DNA of 34,203 nucleotides. Source: Alphaproteobacteria bacterium. GTDB lineage: Bacteria > Patescibacteriota > Microgenomatia > UBA8517. The DNA is taken from the NCBI GenBank assembly GCA_035494495.1, contig DATJGY010000054.1, positions 1-34,203 of the forward strand, given 5' to 3'. The notes below the pieces were generated by a model. That model was not told the DNA's origin and did not search any database. It saw only the letters and a program-made list of their open reading frames with translations. Below, one piece after another: positions 12,343 through 32,565 of this stretch. The first letter of the stretch is position 1, and the number at the start of each line of letters is the position of its first letter. The position numbers and the translations under genes are program-made.

Positions 12343-12373
12343 TATACAAATTTCATGCAAATGATACGAATTG

Positions 12374-12739
12374 CTACGAATTCTGATTGATTCTCAATAT
12401 TCTTTTGGGTGTCAAATACTGACTTTGAAAATTTACCAATATTCCTAATTTAATTCCACTTGCAATCAAATATCTTTGAACTTGAAAATAATGCTCTTTC
12501 GTTATAATTCTTTCGGTTTTTAATTCCAAAATAATTTTATTGTCAATCAAAAAATCTAAGATATTGTTTGTTTCTCCTATTTTTAATTCTCTTTTGTAAT
12601 TAATATTTTCTTCTTTGAACAGCTTTTCAACAAAATCGCCATACTGTTTTTCTCTCGAATATCTACCTAGCTCATTGTGTGCTTTGTAACATATCCCAAC
12701 TATTTTGTAAGATAATTCAGGATAAATTATATCTGACAT
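12374..12739 (-). CDS. GxxExxY family protein (PD-(D/E)xK nuclease-like)
   Basis: YKAHNELGRYSREKQY plus DFLIDNKIILELKT (D...ExK), typical of the GxxExxY family. Confidence 0.8.
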   Translation of the reverse strand: MSDIIYPELSYKIVGICYKAHNELGRYSREKQYGDFVEKLFKEENINYKRELKIGETNNILDFLIDNKIILELKTERIITKEHYFQVQRYLIASGIKLGILVNFQSQYLTPKRILRINQNS

Positions 12740-12750: not shown

Positions 12751-12799
12751 ACTTATTTGCATATATTTGTAGCATTCGTATTTATTAGTAGATTAGAAT

Positions 12800-21153: not shown

Positions 21154-21510
21154 ATGAAATCATTTTTAAAATTTGTAGTTTGGGTAATAGTTTTGTTTCT
21201 TCTATCATTTCTCCATGTCTATTTAATTGCAGGTAGAGATGACAGTTTTGAAACACTTATATTAGCTTTTCTTGTAATGCCAATTGGAAGCACAATAGTT
21301 TTTCAACTATTAACTTACTTTAATAAGAAGCTATCTTTTTCAAATCATTTTGCAAGAATTATTGTGGTCATATTGCCTTCTTTTGCATACTCTCTTATAT
21401 TACACTCTGCTGTTTTTCATACCTTCTTGGCAATATATTATTTGGTTATCAGTTTTGTGGGTGATAAGATTAGGATGTGGATTGAGGCTAGGGGAAAGAA
21501 AAATAACTAA
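21154..21510 (+). CDS. hypothetical membrane protein (118 aa, about 4 TM)
   Basis: Hydrophobic spans. Starts 3 nt after rpmB. Confidence 0.5.
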   Translation: MKSFLKFVVWVIVLFLLSFLHVYLIAGRDDSFETLILAFLVMPIGSTIVFQLLTYFNKKLSFSNHFARIIVVILPSFAYSLILHSAVFHTFLAIYYLVISFVGDKIRMWIEARGKKNN

Positions 21511-22358
21511 ATAAGATCTACTTTGTAAGCTTCTTTAAATTGTTTGTAAGACACTGGAGTTTTGCCTTCCATTTGAACTTCATCCAAAATTAGTTTTCCA
21601 TCTTCAATATGAGCTTTCAAGATTTTCAATCTTTTTTCATTTGCCAAAAATGTATAAATCCCGGGCCATGGTTGATAAGCTCGTAACTTTCTTTCAATTT
21701 CAATCGGATCGTCTTTTTCTAAATCCACAAATCCATCCTCTTTTTTGATAATTTTAGTGTAGGTTACTTTTGTTTCGTCCTGAACTTTTGGAGTAATTTT
21801 TCCTTTCATGTACGGTTCAATAAATTCCAAAATAACTTCTGCGGATCTTTGAAATAATCTTGCACGAAGAATCTCGGTTGTGTCATCTGGATTGATATCT
21901 TCTTTAAATTGGGAAACAATTTTTCCGTGATCAACTTTTGCGTCCATTAAAATTGTAGTTACACCAGTTGTAGTTTTCCCATCGCGAATTGCAGCTGTAA
22001 TTGGAGAGGCGCCGCGGTATTCAGGAAGAAGCGACGGGTGAATTACCAAAATGCCATGAGGAAACATATTAATTACGTCTTGGGAAATAATTTCGCCGTA
22101 AGAAGCTAAAACTCCAATATCGGCAACGACTTTGTTGTCAATCAACTCTGAAGATTGGTAATAAGTATCAATCTTGTGATCATGGGCCCATTTATCAACT
22201 GGTGAATAACTTAAAACTTGTTTGCGGCCAACTGGTTTTGGGCTTTGAGTTACAACGGCCACAATTGGAGATTTTCCGGGACCGGTTACAAACTTCTTGT
22301 GTAAAGAAGTGAGTACTGGCATGACATAATCTGGTGTTCCAAAAAATACAATCTTCAT
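21507..22358 (-). CDS. fmt: methionyl-tRNA formyltransferase
   Basis: MKIVFFGTPDYV, HPSLLPEYRGASPI, and position downstream of def. Confidence 0.9.
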   Translation of the reverse strand: MKIVFFGTPDYVMPVLTSLHKKFVTGPGKSPIVAVVTQSPKPVGRKQVLSYSPVDKWAHDHKIDTYYQSSELIDNKVVADIGVLASYGEIISQDVINMFPHGILVIHPSLLPEYRGASPITAAIRDGKTTTGVTTILMDAKVDHGKIVSQFKEDINPDDTTEILRARLFQRSAEVILEFIEPYMKGKITPKVQDETKVTYTKIIKKEDGFVDLEKDDPIEIERKLRAYQPWPGIYTFLANEKRLKILKAHIEDGKLILDEVQMEGKTPVSYKQFKEAYKVDLI

Positions 22359-22359
22359 G

Positions 22360-22893
22360 TTAGATTAACTCCACCTCTTCCCACTCATCATCTTCCACTT
22401 TATATAATGGCTTCTTTTCCTCCAAAAGTCGATCAACAAACAAAATCCCATCCAAATGATCAATTTCATGCAAAACTATTTGGGCATTAAAATCCAAAAA
22501 TTCTTCGGTAATTTTTTCACCTTTTTCATTTAAATATTTTAAAGTTACCTTGTTGGCACGTTTTAAAGGACCATAATAATAGGGAAGAGACAGGCAGCCT
22601 TCAAGAATTTCGTTGTGGGATTTGCGTGAACGGTGAACAGTAGACGGTGAACCGATTTTCAGAATTTCTGGGTTAATTACTATACGTTTGAAGTTTTTGT
22701 AGTTAGCAAGAAAAATTCTTACATTTTTGCCAATTTGGGGTGCAGCCAAACCAACACCTTCTGGAGCTTTTTGAGTTTTCAAAGTATCTTGTAAGTCCTG
22801 AACTAGTTTCAAGATCTTTTTATCAATTTTCTTAACAGGTTGGGATTTCTTCCGCAAAATCGGATCACCAGATTGGATTATTTTTTGAATCAT
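22360..22893 (-). CDS. def: peptide deformylase
   Basis: GVGLAAPQIG, EGCLS and HEIDHLDG motifs. Confidence 0.95.
   Translation of the reverse strand: MIQKIIQSGDPILRKKSQPVKKIDKKILKLVQDLQDTLKTQKAPEGVGLAAPQIGKNVRIFLANYKNFKRIVINPEILKIGSPSTVHRSRKSHNEILEGCLSLPYYYGPLKRANKVTLKYLNEKGEKITEEFLDFNAQIVLHEIDHLDGILFVDRLLEEKKPLYKVEDDEWEEVELI
22625..22652. repeat. four tandem heptamers of the GTTCACN family inside def, translated in frame
   Basis: Plus strand reads CGTGAAC GGTGAAC AGTAGAC GGTGAAC. The coding strand reads GTTCACC GTCTACT GTTCACC GTTCACG and encodes GSPSTVHRSR just before EGCLS. Confidence 0.85.
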
Positions 22894-23624: not shown

Positions 23625-25484
23625 TTATTTGAGGCTTTCAAGTGTTTGTTTTGTCAACTCATCTTTTGGATCGATAAATTGCAAAACATATTCCAACTGT
23701 TTTTTTGCTTCTTGTTTATCATTTTTCTCAATTAGTAAAAAAGCATATGCAAGTCTAGCTTCTTTGTAATTTGCTTTTAGATTAATTGTTTTTTTAAGAA
23801 TCGCGATCGCTTTGTCTTGGTCGCCAAGACGGGCGTAAGTTAAACCCAAATTGTAATAAAGTTTTGCATCAGTTGGAGAATATTTTATGGCGTCTATTAA
23901 AACATCTTTTGCTGAGTCTAAATCATTAAGCCTTAAAAAAATCCCAAATCTAGATTTTTTAAAACTTGGATTGTTTGGCGAAAGATCAATAGCTTTTTGG
24001 GATTCACTAAGATCAGAATTTTGTACAGCTAGAGCATTATGATAGATAGCTTGATTTGGTTGTAAATTAATCGCACCTGCAAAATCTTTTTTGGCGTAGA
24101 GAAGATCAGCATACCAGTACGTCGTTATGCGCGATAGTACATAGAACATAGTACATAGTACAAAGAATATAAAAAATTTCTGTAAGTTTTCTAATTTGTT
24201 CTCGGTTTGTACTTTGTACTCTGTACTGAGTACTACTCCCACCGCTGGGAACAAGAAAAGTTCTAACTGTGTTGGAACTACTGAAAAGCCGAAGAAATTT
24301 GTAATTAATAAACTGAAATATCCTGCCAATAAAGCATAATTTCTAGTTTTTATAAAAATTACTAGTGAAAACAAAATTAAAATGAAATATGAAATCAGTC
24401 CAAAAGCTCCAGAATTTGCAGCGAAGTTAAGATACTCATTATGTGCTTTGTTGTAAATAAAATCCCATTCAGAAACTAAGTTATGTTCCACTGGGCGGAA
24501 TTGGGGATAGGAAAATGCAAATGTTTCAAGACCCGACCCGAAAATTGGATAATGACGCCAAACTTCTAGCGCTCCCTTCCAAACTATTTTGCGGATTTCA
24601 CCTGACTCAGTACCACCAGATTCCAAGGCAGGTGTTGCAGATTGCGGAATGCGGGAGTTAGTATTGGGATTAAAAATAAAAAATAAAATTAAAAATGAAA
24701 AATTAAAAATTAAGAACGATTTCCAATTTTCTCTAAAATTTTTAATTAAAGAGATCATCCAAAAAATCAGTGAGCTAATTCCAAATGCAATTAGTCCAGA
24801 TCGAGACTTAGTAAATAATAAAGTTATGAAAAATAAATTAGATAAACAAAAACAAATTAAAAAATTTATAAATTTGTGATTTGAAAATTTATTGAAAATT
24901 GAAAATTGAAGATTGAAAATTATTGGTAACAGTGCAACCAAAAAAGCAGCAAGCCAATTCGGTTGACCCAATGTTGAAAAAACTCGGGATTGTACATCCT
25001 GCACCCAAATATTTTTGTCAATTCCAAAATGCTGGAGAATGCCGTAAATACAAACTATAACGGCAGAAAATAGTACACAGTACAAAGTACGAAGAGCAGA
25101 TTTTTTATCTAAATTGGAAACAAAAGCCCAGTAAAGCAGACTATAGCAAATGGTCGATAGCAAGCCGCCGTTAAAGCGTGAGTAATATCCAAAGAGTGAA
25201 GTTTGTGGATCAAGGGAAAAAATGGTTGAAATGATTTGTGACAAAAGAAAAATTAACAGTGGAATATCAAGAAGAGTTTTTTGAAAAATAAATTTCCTTT
25301 CTAAAATACATCGAATTATCCAAGTTGCAATTATTAAAGTGGTGAGAATGTAGACAAGAACCATTTTGTTAAATTCAAAAACCTCAGAAGTAAAAGGCCA
25401 AAGAATTAAAGGAGTAAAAAAAAGTAAAAAGGCAAAGAGGAAAAAAATTAGTTTTTTCACTTTATTTTTTGACTTTTGACTCAA
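23625..25484 (-). CDS. O-antigen ligase/polymerase-like (Wzy_C) polytopic membrane protein with C-terminal TPR repeats
   Basis: Many TM spans. IYNKAHNEYLNFAANSGAFGL is the typical Wzy_C loop. The C-terminus has TPR-like repeats (AKLYYNLGLTYARLGDQDKAI...). Confidence 0.75.
   Translation of the reverse strand: MSQKSKNKVKKLIFFLFAFLLFFTPLILWPFTSEVFEFNKMVLVYILTTLIIATWIIRCILERKFIFQKTLLDIPLLIFLLSQIISTIFSLDPQTSLFGYYSRFNGGLLSTICYSLLYWAFVSNLDKKSALRTLYCVLFSAVIVCIYGILQHFGIDKNIWVQDVQSRVFSTLGQPNWLAAFLVALLPIIFNLQFSIFNKFSNHKFINFLICFCLSNLFFITLLFTKSRSGLIAFGISSLIFWMISLIKNFRENWKSFLIFNFSFLILFFIFNPNTNSRIPQSATPALESGGTESGEIRKIVWKGALEVWRHYPIFGSGLETFAFSYPQFRPVEHNLVSEWDFIYNKAHNEYLNFAANSGAFGLISYFILILFSLVIFIKTRNYALLAGYFSLLITNFFGFSVVPTQLELFLFPAVGVVLSTEYKVQTENKLENLQKFFIFFVLCTMFYVLSRITTYWYADLLYAKKDFAGAINLQPNQAIYHNALAVQNSDLSESQKAIDLSPNNPSFKKSRFGIFLRLNDLDSAKDVLIDAIKYSPTDAKLYYNLGLTYARLGDQDKAIAILKKTINLKANYKEARLAYAFLLIEKNDKQEAKKQLEYVLQFIDPKDELTKQTLESLK
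24136..24163. repeat. four tandem heptamers AGTACAN (in frame in the Wzy-like gene)
   Basis: AGTACAT AGAACAT AGTACAT AGTACAA. Confidence 0.85.
24207..24234. repeat. four tandem heptamers NNGTACT, inverted relative to 24136-24163
   Basis: TTGTACT TTGTACT CTGTACT GAGTACT. Confidence 0.85.
24690..24717. repeat. A/T-rich period-7 tract (NAAAAAT x about 4)
   Basis: TAAAAAT GAAAAAT TAAAAAT TAAGAAC. This may simply be low complexity encoding an F/L/I-rich TM segment. Confidence 0.4.
24891..24918. repeat. four tandem heptamers ATTGAAA
   Basis: ATTGAAA ATTGAAA ATTGAAG ATTGAAA. Encodes part of NLQFSIFNKF. Confidence 0.75.
25072..25092. repeat. three tandem heptamers AGTACNN (same GTAC family)
   Basis: AGTACAC AGTACAA AGTACGA, followed by a degenerate AGAGCAG. 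Confidence 0.7.
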
Positions 25485-26671: not shown

Positions 26672-27739
26672 ATGCAATTTCCAATCAAAATCCCTTTCAA
26701 GATTAAAATCAAAAATCCGGTTGATCAGCTTCTTGGTCTTTTTTCCCATGACATCGGCATTGATTTAGGAACAGCAAATACTCTTGTGTATGTTAGTGGA
26801 AAAGGGATCGTGATCCGTGAACCTTCCGCTGTAGCTCGCCACAAAAAAACAAAAGAAATTTTAGCAATTGGCTCTTCTGCCAAAAAAATGTACGGCCGCG
26901 CTCCATCAACAATTGAAGCAATTCGTCCTTTGCGAGATGGAGTTATAGCTGATTTTGATGCAACCGCAGCAATGCTTAAACATTACATTGCAAAAGTTCA
27001 CGAGTCGGGAAGTGCCATGCCAAAAATTCCCCGCCCGAGAGTTGTTATTGGAATTCCATCGGGAGTCACTGATGTTGAAAGAAGAGCTGTTGCCGATGCC
27101 GCGATTGATGCTGGCGCCCGGGAAGCCCATTTGATTGAAGAGCCAATGGCTGCTGCAATTGGGGCGGGTTTGCCTGTTGATGGGCCGGAGGGAAATTTTA
27201 TAGTTGATATTGGTGGCGGCACGAGTGAGATTGCTGTAATTTCTTTGGGGGGGATTGTAATTGGCCGCTCTGTTAGAGTTGCTGGAGATGAAATGGACGA
27301 GGCAATTATTAATTATGTTCGCTTGAAATACTCACTACTTTTAGGGCAACCATCGGCAGAAAGAGTGAAGATAGAAAATGTTCCGGGATTTGTGGTTGTT
27401 CGCGGCCGAGATTTGGAAACTGGTCTTCCAAAGTCTATCAAATTAACGAGTGAAGAAATTAAAGAAGCTCTATCGCCAACGATTCAAGAAATTGTTACAA
27501 ATATTGTTGACACTTTGGAGGAAACTCCGGCGGAGCTAATTAGCGATATTATGGAAAGGGGAATTACCTTGGCCGGCGGCGGAGCGCTAATTGGTGGAAT
27601 TGACAAAATTATTTCAGATGCTACTAAAATGCCAGTCCATATTGCTGACGATCCTTTGAGTTGTGTTGTAAGAGGTTGTGGAATTGTATTGGAAAATAGA
27701 GAATTGTTGAAGAGGATTCAGATTACAAAAGGACTATGA
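26672..27739 (+). CDS. mreB: rod-shape-determining protein MreB
   Basis: DIGIDLGTANTLVYV, DGVIADFD, IVDIGGGTSEIAVISLGG and GITLAGGGALI. TTG 26636 is an alternative start. Confidence 0.9.
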   Translation: MQFPIKIPFKIKIKNPVDQLLGLFSHDIGIDLGTANTLVYVSGKGIVIREPSAVARHKKTKEILAIGSSAKKMYGRAPSTIEAIRPLRDGVIADFDATAAMLKHYIAKVHESGSAMPKIPRPRVVIGIPSGVTDVERRAVADAAIDAGAREAHLIEEPMAAAIGAGLPVDGPEGNFIVDIGGGTSEIAVISLGGIVIGRSVRVAGDEMDEAIINYVRLKYSLLLGQPSAERVKIENVPGFVVVRGRDLETGLPKSIKLTSEEIKEALSPTIQEIVTNIVDTLEETPAELISDIMERGITLAGGGALIGGIDKIISDATKMPVHIADDPLSCVVRGCGIVLENRELLKRIQITKGL

Positions 27740-30595: not shown

Positions 30596-32565
30596 ACCTA
30601 ATCATCGTTGAATCACCAACTAAAGCCAAGACTCTTGGGAAATTTCTTGGAAAAGATTATGTGGTTGAGGCAACTATGGGCCATATTAAAGATTTACCAA
30701 AAAGCAAACTTGGTGTGGATATTGAACATGATTTTAAACCTGATTTTATTGAAGTTGAAAAAAGAGCTGCAACTATAAAACTTCTTAAATCTAGCGCTAA
30801 AAAAGCAAAAATAATTTTTATAGCATCAGATCCTGACCGCGAAGGAGAAGCTATTGCTCAACATGTAAATGACATAATTTCTGTTCACGGTTCACCGTTG
30901 ACTATTCACCGTATAACTTTTCACGAAATTACAAAGGAAGCAGTAGAAGAAGCTTTAAATCATCCGGGTAAAATTAATCAAGATCTTGTTGATGCCCAAA
31001 CTGCACGCCGAGTTCTTGATCGTTTGGTTGGCTATAAACTCTCACCTCTTTTATGGAAAAAAGTTAGGGTTGGTTTATCAGCAGGGCGTGTTCAATCAGT
31101 TGCCGTTCGATTGATCGTTGAAAAAGAACGGGAAATTGAAAAGTTTAAATCAGATGAATATTGGGAAATATATGTAACAGTTCACCGTTCACCGTTGACG
31201 GTTGACAAGTTTACAGTCCAACTTATCAAACAGGAAATTAAAAACAAAACACAAGCTGACAAAATTTTGGCTGATTTAGAAAAAGCAAATTACAAAGTTC
31301 TTGATGTTAAGAAAAGGCAAGTTGTAAAAAATCCTTATCCACCGTTTACAACCTCAACCATGACCCAAACTGCAGCAAGGCTTTTTGGCTGGTCTTCCAA
31401 AAAAACCATGTCAATTGCTCAAGGACTTTATGAAGAAGGTTTGATTACATACCATAGAACCGATTCATTAAATTTAAATTTTGCGGCAGTTGAAAAAGCT
31501 AGACAACATATTAGCAAAGAATATGGGCAAAATTATCTTCCAGAAAAACCAAGATTGTACAAAACAACTTCTAAATCTGCACAAGAAGCACATGAGGCCA
31601 TCCGTGTGACGGATGTGGGCCGTGAACCGTCAACAGTCAACGGTGAACATGGAGAACAAAAATTATATGATTTAATTTGGAAAAGATTTCTTGCATGCCA
31701 GATGGCATCAGCAATCTATGACGAAACAACTATCGACGTTTCCGCCGCTGTTCACAGTTCACCGTTCACAGTTCACTATCTTCGCGCCTCTGGTCAAATT
31801 ATGATCTTCGACGGTTGGCGAAAATTATTCCCTCTTGATTCTCAAGTTGTAATCTTGCCTGATGTTAAAAAAGATGAGGAATTAAAGAAAATCAAGGTTT
31901 GGGGAGAACAAAAGTTTACACAACCGCCCGCAAGATTTAATGAAGCTTCGTTAATCAAAACTTTAGAAAAGTTGGGGATTGGCCGGCCAAGTACTTATGC
32001 TCCAACAATTTCTACAATTCAAGTTCGAAATTATGTTGAGAAAAAAGAAGGCAAATTTTTCCCGACGACAATTGGAATTGCTGTCAATGATTTTTTGATT
32101 GGCAATTTTCCAGACACATTTGATTATGGATTTACAGCCGGAATGGAAGGCAAATTGGATGAGGTTGCGAATGGAAAACTCAAATGGCAAAAAGAAATTG
32201 GAAGTTTCTGGAAACCTTTGAGCAAAAAAATAGTTAATGTCGAGAAAAATTCAACAAGAGTAAAAATTGAAGTTGAAAAATTAGGTAAAAAATGCCCAGA
32301 TTGTAAGGATGGAGAATTGGTAATTAGAACAGGGAGATTTGGCAAATTTATTTCCTGCTCGCTTTTCCCAGAGTGTAAACATACTGAAAAATACTTAGAG
32401 AAAACTGGAATGCAGTGTCCGGAATGCGGAAGTGGGGACGTGATTGTCAAAAAATCAGGAAAGGGGAGAAAGTTTTTTGGTTGCTCCAGATATCCAGAAT
32501 GTAAATTTGCTTCTTGGCAAATTCCAAAAAAAGAGGAAAATACTACAAATGGAAAGAGTACATGA
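30592..32565 (+). CDS. topA: DNA topoisomerase I with two C-terminal C4 zinc ribbons
   Basis: Toprim domain (IIVESPTKAKT, DPDREGEAIA), active-site region ITYHRTDS, and CPDC...CSLFPEC and CPEC...CSRYPEC. Confidence 0.95.
   Translation: MNLIIVESPTKAKTLGKFLGKDYVVEATMGHIKDLPKSKLGVDIEHDFKPDFIEVEKRAATIKLLKSSAKKAKIIFIASDPDREGEAIAQHVNDIISVHGSPLTIHRITFHEITKEAVEEALNHPGKINQDLVDAQTARRVLDRLVGYKLSPLLWKKVRVGLSAGRVQSVAVRLIVEKEREIEKFKSDEYWEIYVTVHRSPLTVDKFTVQLIKQEIKNKTQADKILADLEKANYKVLDVKKRQVVKNPYPPFTTSTMTQTAARLFGWSSKKTMSIAQGLYEEGLITYHRTDSLNLNFAAVEKARQHISKEYGQNYLPEKPRLYKTTSKSAQEAHEAIRVTDVGREPSTVNGEHGEQKLYDLIWKRFLACQMASAIYDETTIDVSAAVHSSPFTVHYLRASGQIMIFDGWRKLFPLDSQVVILPDVKKDEELKKIKVWGEQKFTQPPARFNEASLIKTLEKLGIGRPSTYAPTISTIQVRNYVEKKEGKFFPTTIGIAVNDFLIGNFPDTFDYGFTAGMEGKLDEVANGKLKWQKEIGSFWKPLSKKIVNVEKNSTRVKIEVEKLGKKCPDCKDGELVIRTGRFGKFISCSLFPECKHTEKYLEKTGMQCPECGSGDVIVKKSGKGRKFFGCSRYPECKFASWQIPKKEENTTNGKST
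30883..30910. repeat. heptamer block 1 in topA (4 x 7 nt)
   Basis: GTTCACG GTTCACC GTTGACT ATTCACC; encodes VHGSPLTIH. Confidence 0.9.
31180..31207. repeat. heptamer block 2 in topA (4 x 7 nt)
   Basis: GTTCACC GTTCACC GTTGACG GTTGACA; encodes VHRSPLTVD. Confidence 0.9.
31621..31648. repeat. heptamer block 3 in topA (4 x 7 nt, inverted orientation)
   Basis: CGTGAAC CGTCAAC AGTCAAC GGTGAAC; encodes REPSTVNGE. Confidence 0.9.
31750..31777. repeat. heptamer block 4 in topA (4 x 7 nt)
   Basis: GTTCACA GTTCACC GTTCACA GTTCACT; encodes VHSSPFTVH. Confidence 0.9.

Follow-up and report, generated by a model that had tools for sequence, protein, structure and literature searches.

Heptanucleotides are the commonest long simple sequence repeats (LSSRs) of prokaryotes, according to the survey of Mrazek, Guo and Shah (2007) as relayed in later papers (PMC4679880, PMC4692102). 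In that relayed form, the survey places such repeats mainly in intergenic DNA, describes those within genes as having unit lengths in multiples of three, and ascribes their origin to slippage of a polymerase with a footprint of ~7 nt. They have been on record in cyanobacteria for more than 30 years, among them the short tandemly repeated repetitive (STRR) heptamers of Calothrix PCC 7601 (Mazel et al. 1990, as cited in PMC4692102); their origin and function still lack an explanation, and the prevailing view places them between genes. Direct repeats of TAACTGA occur in Beggiatoaceae, cyanobacteria, and Bacteroidetes (PMC4679880), and GGGAATC or GGGGAYT repeats in Xanthomonas and Nostoc (PMC4692102). 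We describe here an array of four direct heptamers inside def, the peptide deformylase gene of an uncultured Woesebacteria bacterium of the candidate phyla radiation (CPR). It lies on a contig of 34,203 nt (DATJGY010000054.1), which constitutes the window of this analysis and is contig C54 of the genome under study, G000. The array belongs to a family with the core GTT(C/G)AC, denoted GTTSAC, in which the seventh base is a free spacer (N). No paper that links heptamer repeats to CPR, Patescibacteria, or Microgenomates was found among the top search results, and heptamer arrays in coding regions are little described.

On balance, we read the def array as a tolerated product of a lineage-wide process that generates or rewrites arrays specifically of period 7, with a loop of Def as one of its hot-spots and the reading frame as a filter on its outcomes. 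DNA is the level at which the process acts, irrespective of orientation and of whether the sequence is coding or noncoding. At def, the array replaced loop sequence of equal length, and the protein was not lengthened. The array is most likely a passenger without a catalytic role.

The encoded protein carries the GVGLAAPQ, EGCLS, and HEIDH motifs and is thereby a peptide deformylase; its gene is present in a single copy, and its best relative in the Protein Data Bank is the Thermotoga enzyme (1LME, 1.4e-28). The initial annotation had reported a 28-nt run of four heptamers in this gene, which is borne out on the reverse complement and by an independent call of Tandem Repeats Finder (22626-22652, period 7, 3.9 copies, score 33). 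The unit GTCTAC departs from the core at two bases. The run had been placed immediately upstream of the catalytic EGCLS motif; it does lie upstream, with seven residues in between. Its distance from topA, given as about 8 kb, measures 8.2 kb to the topA blocks (30883-31776). The array is beyond chance, because a two-unit pattern with at most two mismatches is matched 18 times in the window where 1.57 matches are expected, a count that none of 100 shuffles attains, and the four-unit pattern at the same tolerance has 39 matches in the genome against none for the reversed control. As in heptanucleotide simple repeats, its 7-nt units thus follow one another head to tail beyond chance. It has no inverted partner and no structure (folding z = +0.5 versus shuffles). 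In an AlphaFold2 model of Def built on a 44-sequence alignment, the mean predicted local distance difference test score (pLDDT) is 90.8 and the sole segment below 50 is residues 85-94; the array is predicted to encode the tip of a disordered surface β-hairpin loop.

The wider setting was examined in the whole of G000 (665,721 bp in 58 contigs, 35.6% GC, 96% complete) by scoring self-similarity as matches over 21 positions at a given lag, with thresholds of 16/21, 17/21, and 18/21. Across lags 2-15, period 7 accounts for 36 windows at 18/21 or better, every other period for at most 7, and shuffles for none; at 17/21 and 16/21, the period-7 arrays number 56 and 81. The largest family is GTTSAC with ~30 arrays, followed by CAATT-type (~15) and GTAC-type (~12) heptamers, with CTAAT/TAGC-type, GGAATCT-type, and other families besides. 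A strict rule returns 29 GTTSAC arrays, to which def is added; they hold 3-5 units, all lie inside long open reading frames (ORFs), and ~20 run in the sense and ~10 in the antisense direction of their genes, i.e., two thirds and one third. Taken over all families, 64 of the 81 period-7 arrays (79%) are in long ORFs, compared with 83% of random windows, and a preference for coding DNA is therefore rejected. Heptamer families with stop codons in every frame are located between genes. Long master arrays hidden at contig ends were considered as a source and rejected, since only 1 of the 116 ends of G000 carries one.

The hosts of the GTTSAC arrays are diverse. Genes of replication and repair comprise topA (four arrays), uvrA, radA (two), recR, dnaX, holB, a UvrD/PD-(D/E)XK helicase-nuclease (two), RNase HI (rnhA), and an ATP-dependent DNA ligase; others include def, pth, gatB, L25, tgt, murG, a FemAB protein, and an M32 carboxypeptidase. 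The remaining families reside in genes for aminoacyl-tRNA synthetases, GAPDH, transketolase, PPDK, FolD, TsaD, SOD, RecJ, RNase HII, Wzy, and more. Replication and repair genes make up 9 of 23 GTTSAC hosts and 5 of 34 hosts of other families (one-sided p = 0.04), a mild enrichment that we treat as a lead only. The initial annotation had pointed to one repeat family in two unrelated essential genes, which understates the matter, and had named confinement to five sites as an outcome that would overturn its view; the family is spread across the whole genome. The count by coding class, strand, and phase that it proposed returned ~30 arrays, all coding, in both orientations. With so many copies in unrelated genes, a repeat process at the DNA level is indicated in place of deformylase evolution, and the earlier judgment that this is not gene-specific protein evolution holds. 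The peptides differ with orientation, VHxSPxT in sense and STVNSE in antisense. The def peptide is indeed a cyclic permutation of the topA peptides, because any 7-nt period read in triplets yields the same 7-residue cycle in all frames.

Comparison of Def proteins shows what happened at the locus. The set comprised 155 Def genes from relatives, genome contigs, and metagenome contigs; loci from other genomes or contigs bear L-numbers, and C-numbers denote contigs of the genome named. The sequences nearest to G000 Def come from Candidatus Woesebacteria and other Microgenomates metagenome-assembled genomes (MAGs), and no relative with more than 76% Def identity was found in the genome and metagenome contig collections searched. 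An insertion of about 9-10 residues before EGCLS had been anticipated. It is there relative to non-CPR Defs: G000 Def has exactly nine extra residues before EGCLS compared with 1LME, and the distance from motif 1 to EGC is 52 residues versus 42-44 in non-CPR Defs. It is absent within the clade of the organism itself, where Def measures 177-178 aa in the four nearest genera and the flanks match codon for codon around a loop of equal length (INPEIxxI, then ~10 codons, then KSxxEILEGCLS). In G001, a same-genus genome of 800 kb that was taken whole for orthologue comparison, the loop reads SKKKVANKEKGKNKN and lacks periodicity. No empty site was found at the def locus; the loop is equally long with and without the array, which therefore took over pre-existing loop sequence.

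The extension of the Def loop is a clade-wide feature and a recurrent hot-spot for heptamer arrays. Many Microgenomates-type Defs contain period-7 arrays of other kinds, located 33-64 nt ahead of EGC (Table 1), CGACCAA x4 being among the arrays found in other genera, and the loops of non-CPR Defs stay at a background of at most 12/21. Around def loci, period-7 arrays reach 20-38 per 100 kb in CPR genomes and 0 in 137 kb of non-CPR sequence. Where CPR Def loops are longer, inverted array pairs make up the extra length and fold, in frame, into hairpins (-29 to -31 kcal/mol); in L078, the pair is (NNAGTCG)x4 … (CGACNNN)x4, and L147, L149, and L161 are alike. These four loops resemble "empty" hairpin elements within an essential gene. 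Another hot-spot is found in L040, L041, and L042, 77-81 nt past EGC and in the hairpin equivalent to KYLNEKGE, with GAAAATG x4 (21/21) in L040 and CCTACAA x4 (20/21) in L041.

Re-use of the same sites extends beyond def. G001 has 48 period-7 arrays at 17/21 and none of the GTTSAC family; of the hexamer GTTCAC, G000 has 66 copies in tandem context and G001 has 2, and isolated copies, outside arrays, number 167 and 220. Among 40 other relatives, six carry GTTSAC arrays, with 1-5 each. G001 also has 13 period-9 arrays at 17/21 compared with one in G000, e.g., in the orthologue of G000:C10:12612, so the preferred period is not strictly 7 in all genomes. G001 orthologues were available for 59 array sites of G000, and 16 of these sites hold a period-7 array in G001 as well (controls 2.5%, p = 5e-10), some of the same family and others of a different one. 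The AATTNCC x5 array of holB (C29:21434-21473) is identical at 33 of 35 nt in G001, is better conserved than its flanks, and sits in a protein of 60% identity; a site in rnhB (window 12937) likewise has a near-identical array of the same family. The topA site at 31180, by comparison, has GTTCACC… in G000 and a GTNAAAA… array in G001, and a Wzy/TPR gene (~25065-25097) has a GTAC-type array in G000 where G024, a relative from another genus, has GTTCACT x4 of equal length (C20:8499-8525). The M32 carboxypeptidase array (C19:4602-4628) is common to G000 and G024 (C7, L239) at the same site and in the same register, with 23 of 24 core bases identical and differing spacers, and the site is occupied by another heptamer in a third genus, G020 (L240), and by a period-8 array, GTNNNNCA x5, in a fourth, G023 (L242). 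When 26 GTTSAC sites are compared with G001, loops are longer, equal (def included), or shorter, over a range of -20 to +8 codons. Gains measure +6, +9, +15, +21, and +24 nt, those of +21 nt being at topA 31750 and C21:1175. No fixed length, termini, or target duplication was found for GTTSAC copies at these orthologous sites.

Table 1. Coordinates of the def array, its host gene, and related features. Positions are those of the window unless a contig or locus is named.
Feature	Position or locus	Strand	Sequence and remarks
def, peptide deformylase, 177 aa	22360..22893	-	PF01327 Pep_deformylase 4.7e-42
Heptamer array in def, 4 units	22625..22652	-	GTTCACC GTCTACT GTTCACC GTTCACG; encodes Def residues 81-90, GSPSTVHRSR
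Variable hairpin-tip loop of Def	22603..22653	-	Residues 81-97, between strand 68-80 and EGCLS
EGCLS catalytic motif (motif 2)	22588..22602	-	Residues 98-102; invariant in 44 aligned Defs
fmt	21507..22358	-	Directly after def, same strand
topA array 1	30883..30909	+	GTTCACG GTTCACC GTTGACT ATTCAC; peptide VHGSPLTIH
topA array 2	31180..31206	+	GTTCACC GTTCACC GTTGACG GTTGAC; peptide VHRSPLTVD
topA array 3, antisense to gene	31622..31648	-	Peptide REPSTVNGEH; GTCAAC where GTGAAC would create TGA
topA array 4	31750..31776	+	GTTCACA GTTCACC GTTCACA GTTCAC; exactly 21 nt (7 aa) longer than G001 orthologue
GxxExxY gene	12398-12718	-	Arms 12365-12384 / 12771-12790
IVP gene	G000:C49:6821-7138		Arms (ATTAGNN)x4 / (NNCTAAT)x4
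IVP gene	G000:C57:4091-4402		Arms of CAAT-type heptamers
IVP gene	G000:C12:5616-5900		Inverted arms
IVP gene	G000:C28:10355-10663		Inverted arms
Def loop array	L121		AAAGTTA AAAGTGA AAAGTCA AAAGTCA; 19/21
Def loop array	L078		CGACNNN x4
Def loop array	L172		AAAGTCA
Def loop array	L022		CATCAGA x3
Def loop array	L128		TAGAATC
Def loop array	L132		CCGACAA
Def loop array	L016		GCGATAA x3
Def loop array	L015 / L065		GCTAAAAGTGAAAA x2
Def loop array	L019		TAGCNAT
Def loop array	L077		CCAxCAA

The reading frame has left its mark on the arrays. In antisense phase 2, where the alternative would read xxG TGA AC, all nine units are GTCAAC, and it is GTGAAC that prevails in the remaining phases (p = 4e-4); in sense phase 1, where it would create TGA, GTTGAC is found in 0 of 28 units versus 9 of 49 elsewhere. 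This stop avoidance in both orientations indicates that ribosomes read the arrays under the standard code. Core bases at synonymous positions are frozen against codon usage: His and Asp codons end in C in 27 of 27 cases (usual frequencies 29% and 24%), TCA is used 28 of 28 times (usage 35%), and CCG 9 of 9 times (usage 12%). Core conservation is 93-100%, in contrast to a seventh base that varies freely (C30 G21 A20 T42), following codon usage where it forms the third base of Thr (ACN). Strings shared between arrays are at chance level by class-preserving shuffles, with one 21-mer versus 0.6 expected and 25 14-mers versus 18.3 (p = 0.09), and recent array-to-array copying is rejected on these grounds. 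Slippage of whole units followed by neutral decay is ruled out by the frozen cores and unrelated spacers. Taken together, frozen cores, unrelated spacers, and the lack of shared strings exclude protein-level selection, simple slippage with decay, and recent block copy-paste, and leave either a process that specifies only six of seven bases or cores under continuing constraint.

Several functions for the bare word can be set aside as well. GTTCAC occurs 117 and 116 times on the two strands of G000 against ~125 expected per strand; a DNA uptake signal (of the USS or DUS kind) or a Chi-like word is thus rejected, the hexamer not being over-represented outside arrays. Isolated GTTCAC and GTTGAC are not avoided relative to Markov expectation in either G000 or G001, which disposes of restriction-site avoidance and of a restriction-modification target. 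A resemblance to parS sites, LexA boxes, or CtsR boxes was also considered and is probably without meaning, as spacing and orientation do not fit.

If the array arose in the way we favour, repeats would be generated or rewritten at the DNA level with a specificity for period 7, and slippage or template switching is a candidate cause in a genome from which MutS appears to be missing: no MutS_V domain was found in the 96%-complete G000, in which RecA is present and a 5'-3' exonuclease forms a stand-alone ORF of 309 codons. Selection then purges outcomes that break the frame, as is seen in the absence of TGA-creating variants and in the restriction of stop-containing families to the space between genes. 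Within genes, only in-frame outcomes would persist, be it a gain of three units (21 nt) or a rewrite of the same length.

A possible connection leads to small hairpin cassettes that resemble the intervening sequence (IVS) of 23S rRNA. G000 holds one GxxExxY gene (PD-(D/E)XK-type, TIGR04256) and four 23S_rRNA_IVP/TIGR02436 four-helix-bundle genes, and all five sit between inverted arms of 20-34 nt that are 358-392 nt apart (Table 1). Neither kind of gene is known to have a role in mobility. Two of these pairs only, on C49 and C57, have clear heptamer-array arms. Inverted array pairs would be the ~20-34-nt arms of small IVS-like cassettes in G000, and solo arrays such as that in def may be half-sites or relatives of them; for the def array, the relation is suggestive and drawn by analogy. 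Head-to-head pairs of GTTSAC arrays, in frame, occur at C44:5027-5081, C30:4240-4294, and C21:6174-6264. Those on C44 (z = -6.0) and C21 (z = -6.7) fold better than shuffles, as does a GTAC-type pair in frame in the Wzy/TPR gene (24131-24236, - strand, z = -4.5); in all three, the cores pair and the spacers remain unpaired.

Several results weigh against the array being a product of period-7 generation that is merely tolerated. Slippage should copy base 7 together with the core, whereas adjacent spacers are identical in 12/55 cases versus an expected 0.26 (p = 0.79), so that GTTSAC arrays, their spacers being at chance, lack the whole-unit copies of a slippage origin. The cores have been spared the neutral decay to be expected, and plain slippage therefore does not explain how arrays are generated or maintained. 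The coherence of the GTTSAC family, with ~30 arrays in G000 and none in G001, needs either a transfer of information between loci or a genome-specific factor, neither of which is evidenced. The G000 assembly contains no cassette armed with GTTSAC arrays, which leaves the tie of the def array to IVS-like cassettes as one of analogy only, and one of the three GTTSAC pairs, that on C30, folds no better than shuffles (z = -0.65). The foremost of the alternatives, unlikely as we hold it to be, is that the cores are actively maintained and the arrays are units of a genome-wide repeat-writing or repeat-reading system in CPR bacteria, which would rewrite tolerant loops within essential genes in place, one family after another, at unchanged length. 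Its parts may be cassette arms or half-sites recognized by the GxxExxY nuclease or the four-helix-bundle proteins, or it may work through pairing with a complementary RNA. A related proposal, which we doubt and place third, makes the cores functional cis-elements, i.e., sites for a genome-specific DNA- or RNA-binding factor or a complementary RNA. Cores kept at third-codon positions against usage beside a free seventh base would suit it, as would arrays that outlast their flanks between species (C29:21434 and the M32 array of G000 and G024) and the mild replication and repair enrichment, and the near-absence of intergenic space in G000 would account for the placement in tolerant coding loops. 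Binding of heptamer repeats by cold-shock OB-fold proteins, each unit taking up one protein, has been reported (PMC4679880). A cis-element is hard to square, however, with several unrelated families in one genome, both orientations relative to transcription, arbitrary positions within genes and not at their starts, turnover of families at a fixed site between genera, a same-genus relative (G001) that manages without GTTSAC, and an isolated hexamer that shows neither enrichment nor avoidance; it also lacks a candidate factor.

The initial annotation had argued for a mobile or copy-and-paste element, of which the dispersal at the DNA level stands and the fixed inserted cassette does not, as no element anatomy was found. 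A miniature mobile element, either a ~27-28-nt cassette or half of an IVS-like hairpin surviving in frame in loops, ranks second among the alternatives in our estimate and is likewise unlikely. It would explain how GTTSAC came to ~30 sites in unrelated genes and both orientations while absent from G001, the clean gains of 21 nt (topA 31750, C21:1175), and the head-to-head pairs on C44, C30, and C21; four cores and three spacers make 27 nt, or nine codons, exactly the excess of Def over Thermotoga Def, and the four IVP genes and one GxxExxY gene between inverted arms recall the IVS of Coxiella, with its 28-bp stem and variable heptamers, which has been proposed as mobile or selfish (PMC4990558). 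The length of def is nevertheless unchanged among relatives, gains elsewhere vary (6, 9, 15, 21, and 24 nt, or sites become shorter) and show neither fixed ends nor target duplication, and spacer and variant strings are shared at chance level. No RVT_1 (reverse transcriptase), rve, DDE_Tnp_1, Y1_Tnp, or TnpB enzyme was found in the 96%-complete genome, nor a cassette armed with GTTSAC, nor master arrays concealed at more than 1 of 116 contig ends. GTTSAC is, moreover, just one among numerous families of period 7, and in other genera the def loop is occupied by different ones. An artefact of assembly or binning, for instance a chimera joined at a repeat, is conceivable for a fragmented MAG of 58 contigs and in our view very improbable: the ORF is open, its flanks align by codon to orthologues that come from many independent assemblies and hold comparable arrays in the same loop, the arrays are distant from contig ends, and frame-aware stop avoidance is not expected of an artefact. 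Least probable of all is selection at the protein level for a peptide SP-x-TVH-x of benefit to Def and TopA. Its one attraction, the mutual cyclic permutation of the two peptides, is arithmetic for any 7-nt period; antisense copies give peptides of an unrelated kind (e.g., STVNSE), the core is held fixed at synonymous positions in defiance of codon usage, the disordered loop is hypervariable from one orthologue to the next, and relatives function with K-rich or other sequences there. The antisense peptides and the frozen synonymous positions led us to reject it.

Having favoured a lineage-wide period-7 process, we can set its products beside the systems described above. With heptanucleotide LSSRs, as far as the relayed survey characterizes them, they share the lead of period 7 far ahead of other periods, a sporadic and lineage-specific spread, and several families per genome. 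The G000 arrays differ in lying to 79% in ORFs (all of them in the GTTSAC family), single-copy essential genes included, and in being short (3-5 units), with a free seventh base and re-use of the same protein loops. STRR heptamers are likewise dispersed tandem families of unassigned function, although their arrays are long, intergenic, and found in large genomes. The STRR3 unit, CAACAGT, would presumably correspond to the GTTGACT sub-family on the other strand (e.g., C11:4627-4653). The TAACTGA and GGGAATC/GGGGAYT repeats come close in having one favoured heptamer per genome, with 2-6 or more copies, more than 100 loci, and occasional inverted pairs, and in related species they keep the same intergenic place while length and sequence change, by a mechanism of spread that is unexplained. 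They are intergenic, in part since TAACTGA contains stop codons, and roles in translation initiation or G-quadruplex formation have been proposed for them, unlike the GTTSAC family, which is stop-free by selection and translated.

Elements that interrupt genes offer further comparisons. Rickettsia palindromic elements (Ogata et al. 2000) are reportedly selfish DNA that resides in frame in essential genes at surface-exposed, tolerant positions. They are, however, palindromes of 100-150 nt with a fixed length and are clear insertions, whereas the def array is a direct repeat of 28 nt with no net length change. The 23S IVS of Coxiella burnetii comprises 428 nt with an S23p ORF, a 28-bp terminal stem, and heptamers that vary between strains (PMC4990558). 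Comparable IVP ORFs (TIGR02436/PF05635) lie between terminal inverted repeats in G000, although outside rRNA, and the def array differs from an IVS cassette in that it is one arm-like block only, which lacks both a partner and an ORF. Contingency loci, such as the heptanucleotide repeats of Haemophilus HMW1A (PMC8262952), also place within a gene, or next to one, a repeat unit that is not a multiple of three, such that a change by one unit shifts the frame. Their repeats are long, perfect, and located in dispensable surface or restriction genes, unlike the short, interrupted arrays in single-copy essential genes of G000. A contingency locus was rejected for def, which is single-copy and whose off state would be lethal; the other hosts include topA, dnaX, holB, uvrA, radA, recR, pth, gatB, and murG.

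Viral contigs were searched for the same unit. The exact pattern (GTTCACN)2(GTTSACN)2 is present in 25 IMG/VR contigs (L253-L277) of 33-65% GC, compared with seven for the reversed control. These contigs contain 75 period-7 arrays in 189 kb versus 11, 6, and 3 for periods 6, 8, and 9, and their GTTCACN arrays are longer, with a seventh base that is usually constant within an array. In the two Mu-like phage contigs inspected (L260, L267), the arrays stand between ordinary structural genes with no cassette. A phage source of GTTSAC arrays is rejected, as the carriers are generally rich in heptamers and the reversed control also retrieves seven contigs; the presence of GTTCACN arrays in unrelated, heptamer-rich contigs means that a shared unit does not imply shared descent.

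CPR and Microgenomates genomes provide a test bed for the origin of heptamer repeats, as they are tiny, bear arrays in essential genes, and let the reading frame record the limits of the process. Any mechanism must explain the re-use of loops by different families, the unchanged length, and the fixation of six of seven bases against codon usage. The arrays give lineage-specific loops to marker proteins and so affect CPR alignments, phylogenies, and structure predictions, and they may account for part of the "CPR-specific insertions" in housekeeping proteins. Were active maintenance of the cores to prove true, the arrays would stand for a class of selfish or regulatory DNA inside genes that is new, as opposed to passive noise of the microsatellite kind. 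One further member of the GTTSAC family in the window has two units and a remnant-like appearance, GTTCACG GATCACG at 26810-26822 (- strand).

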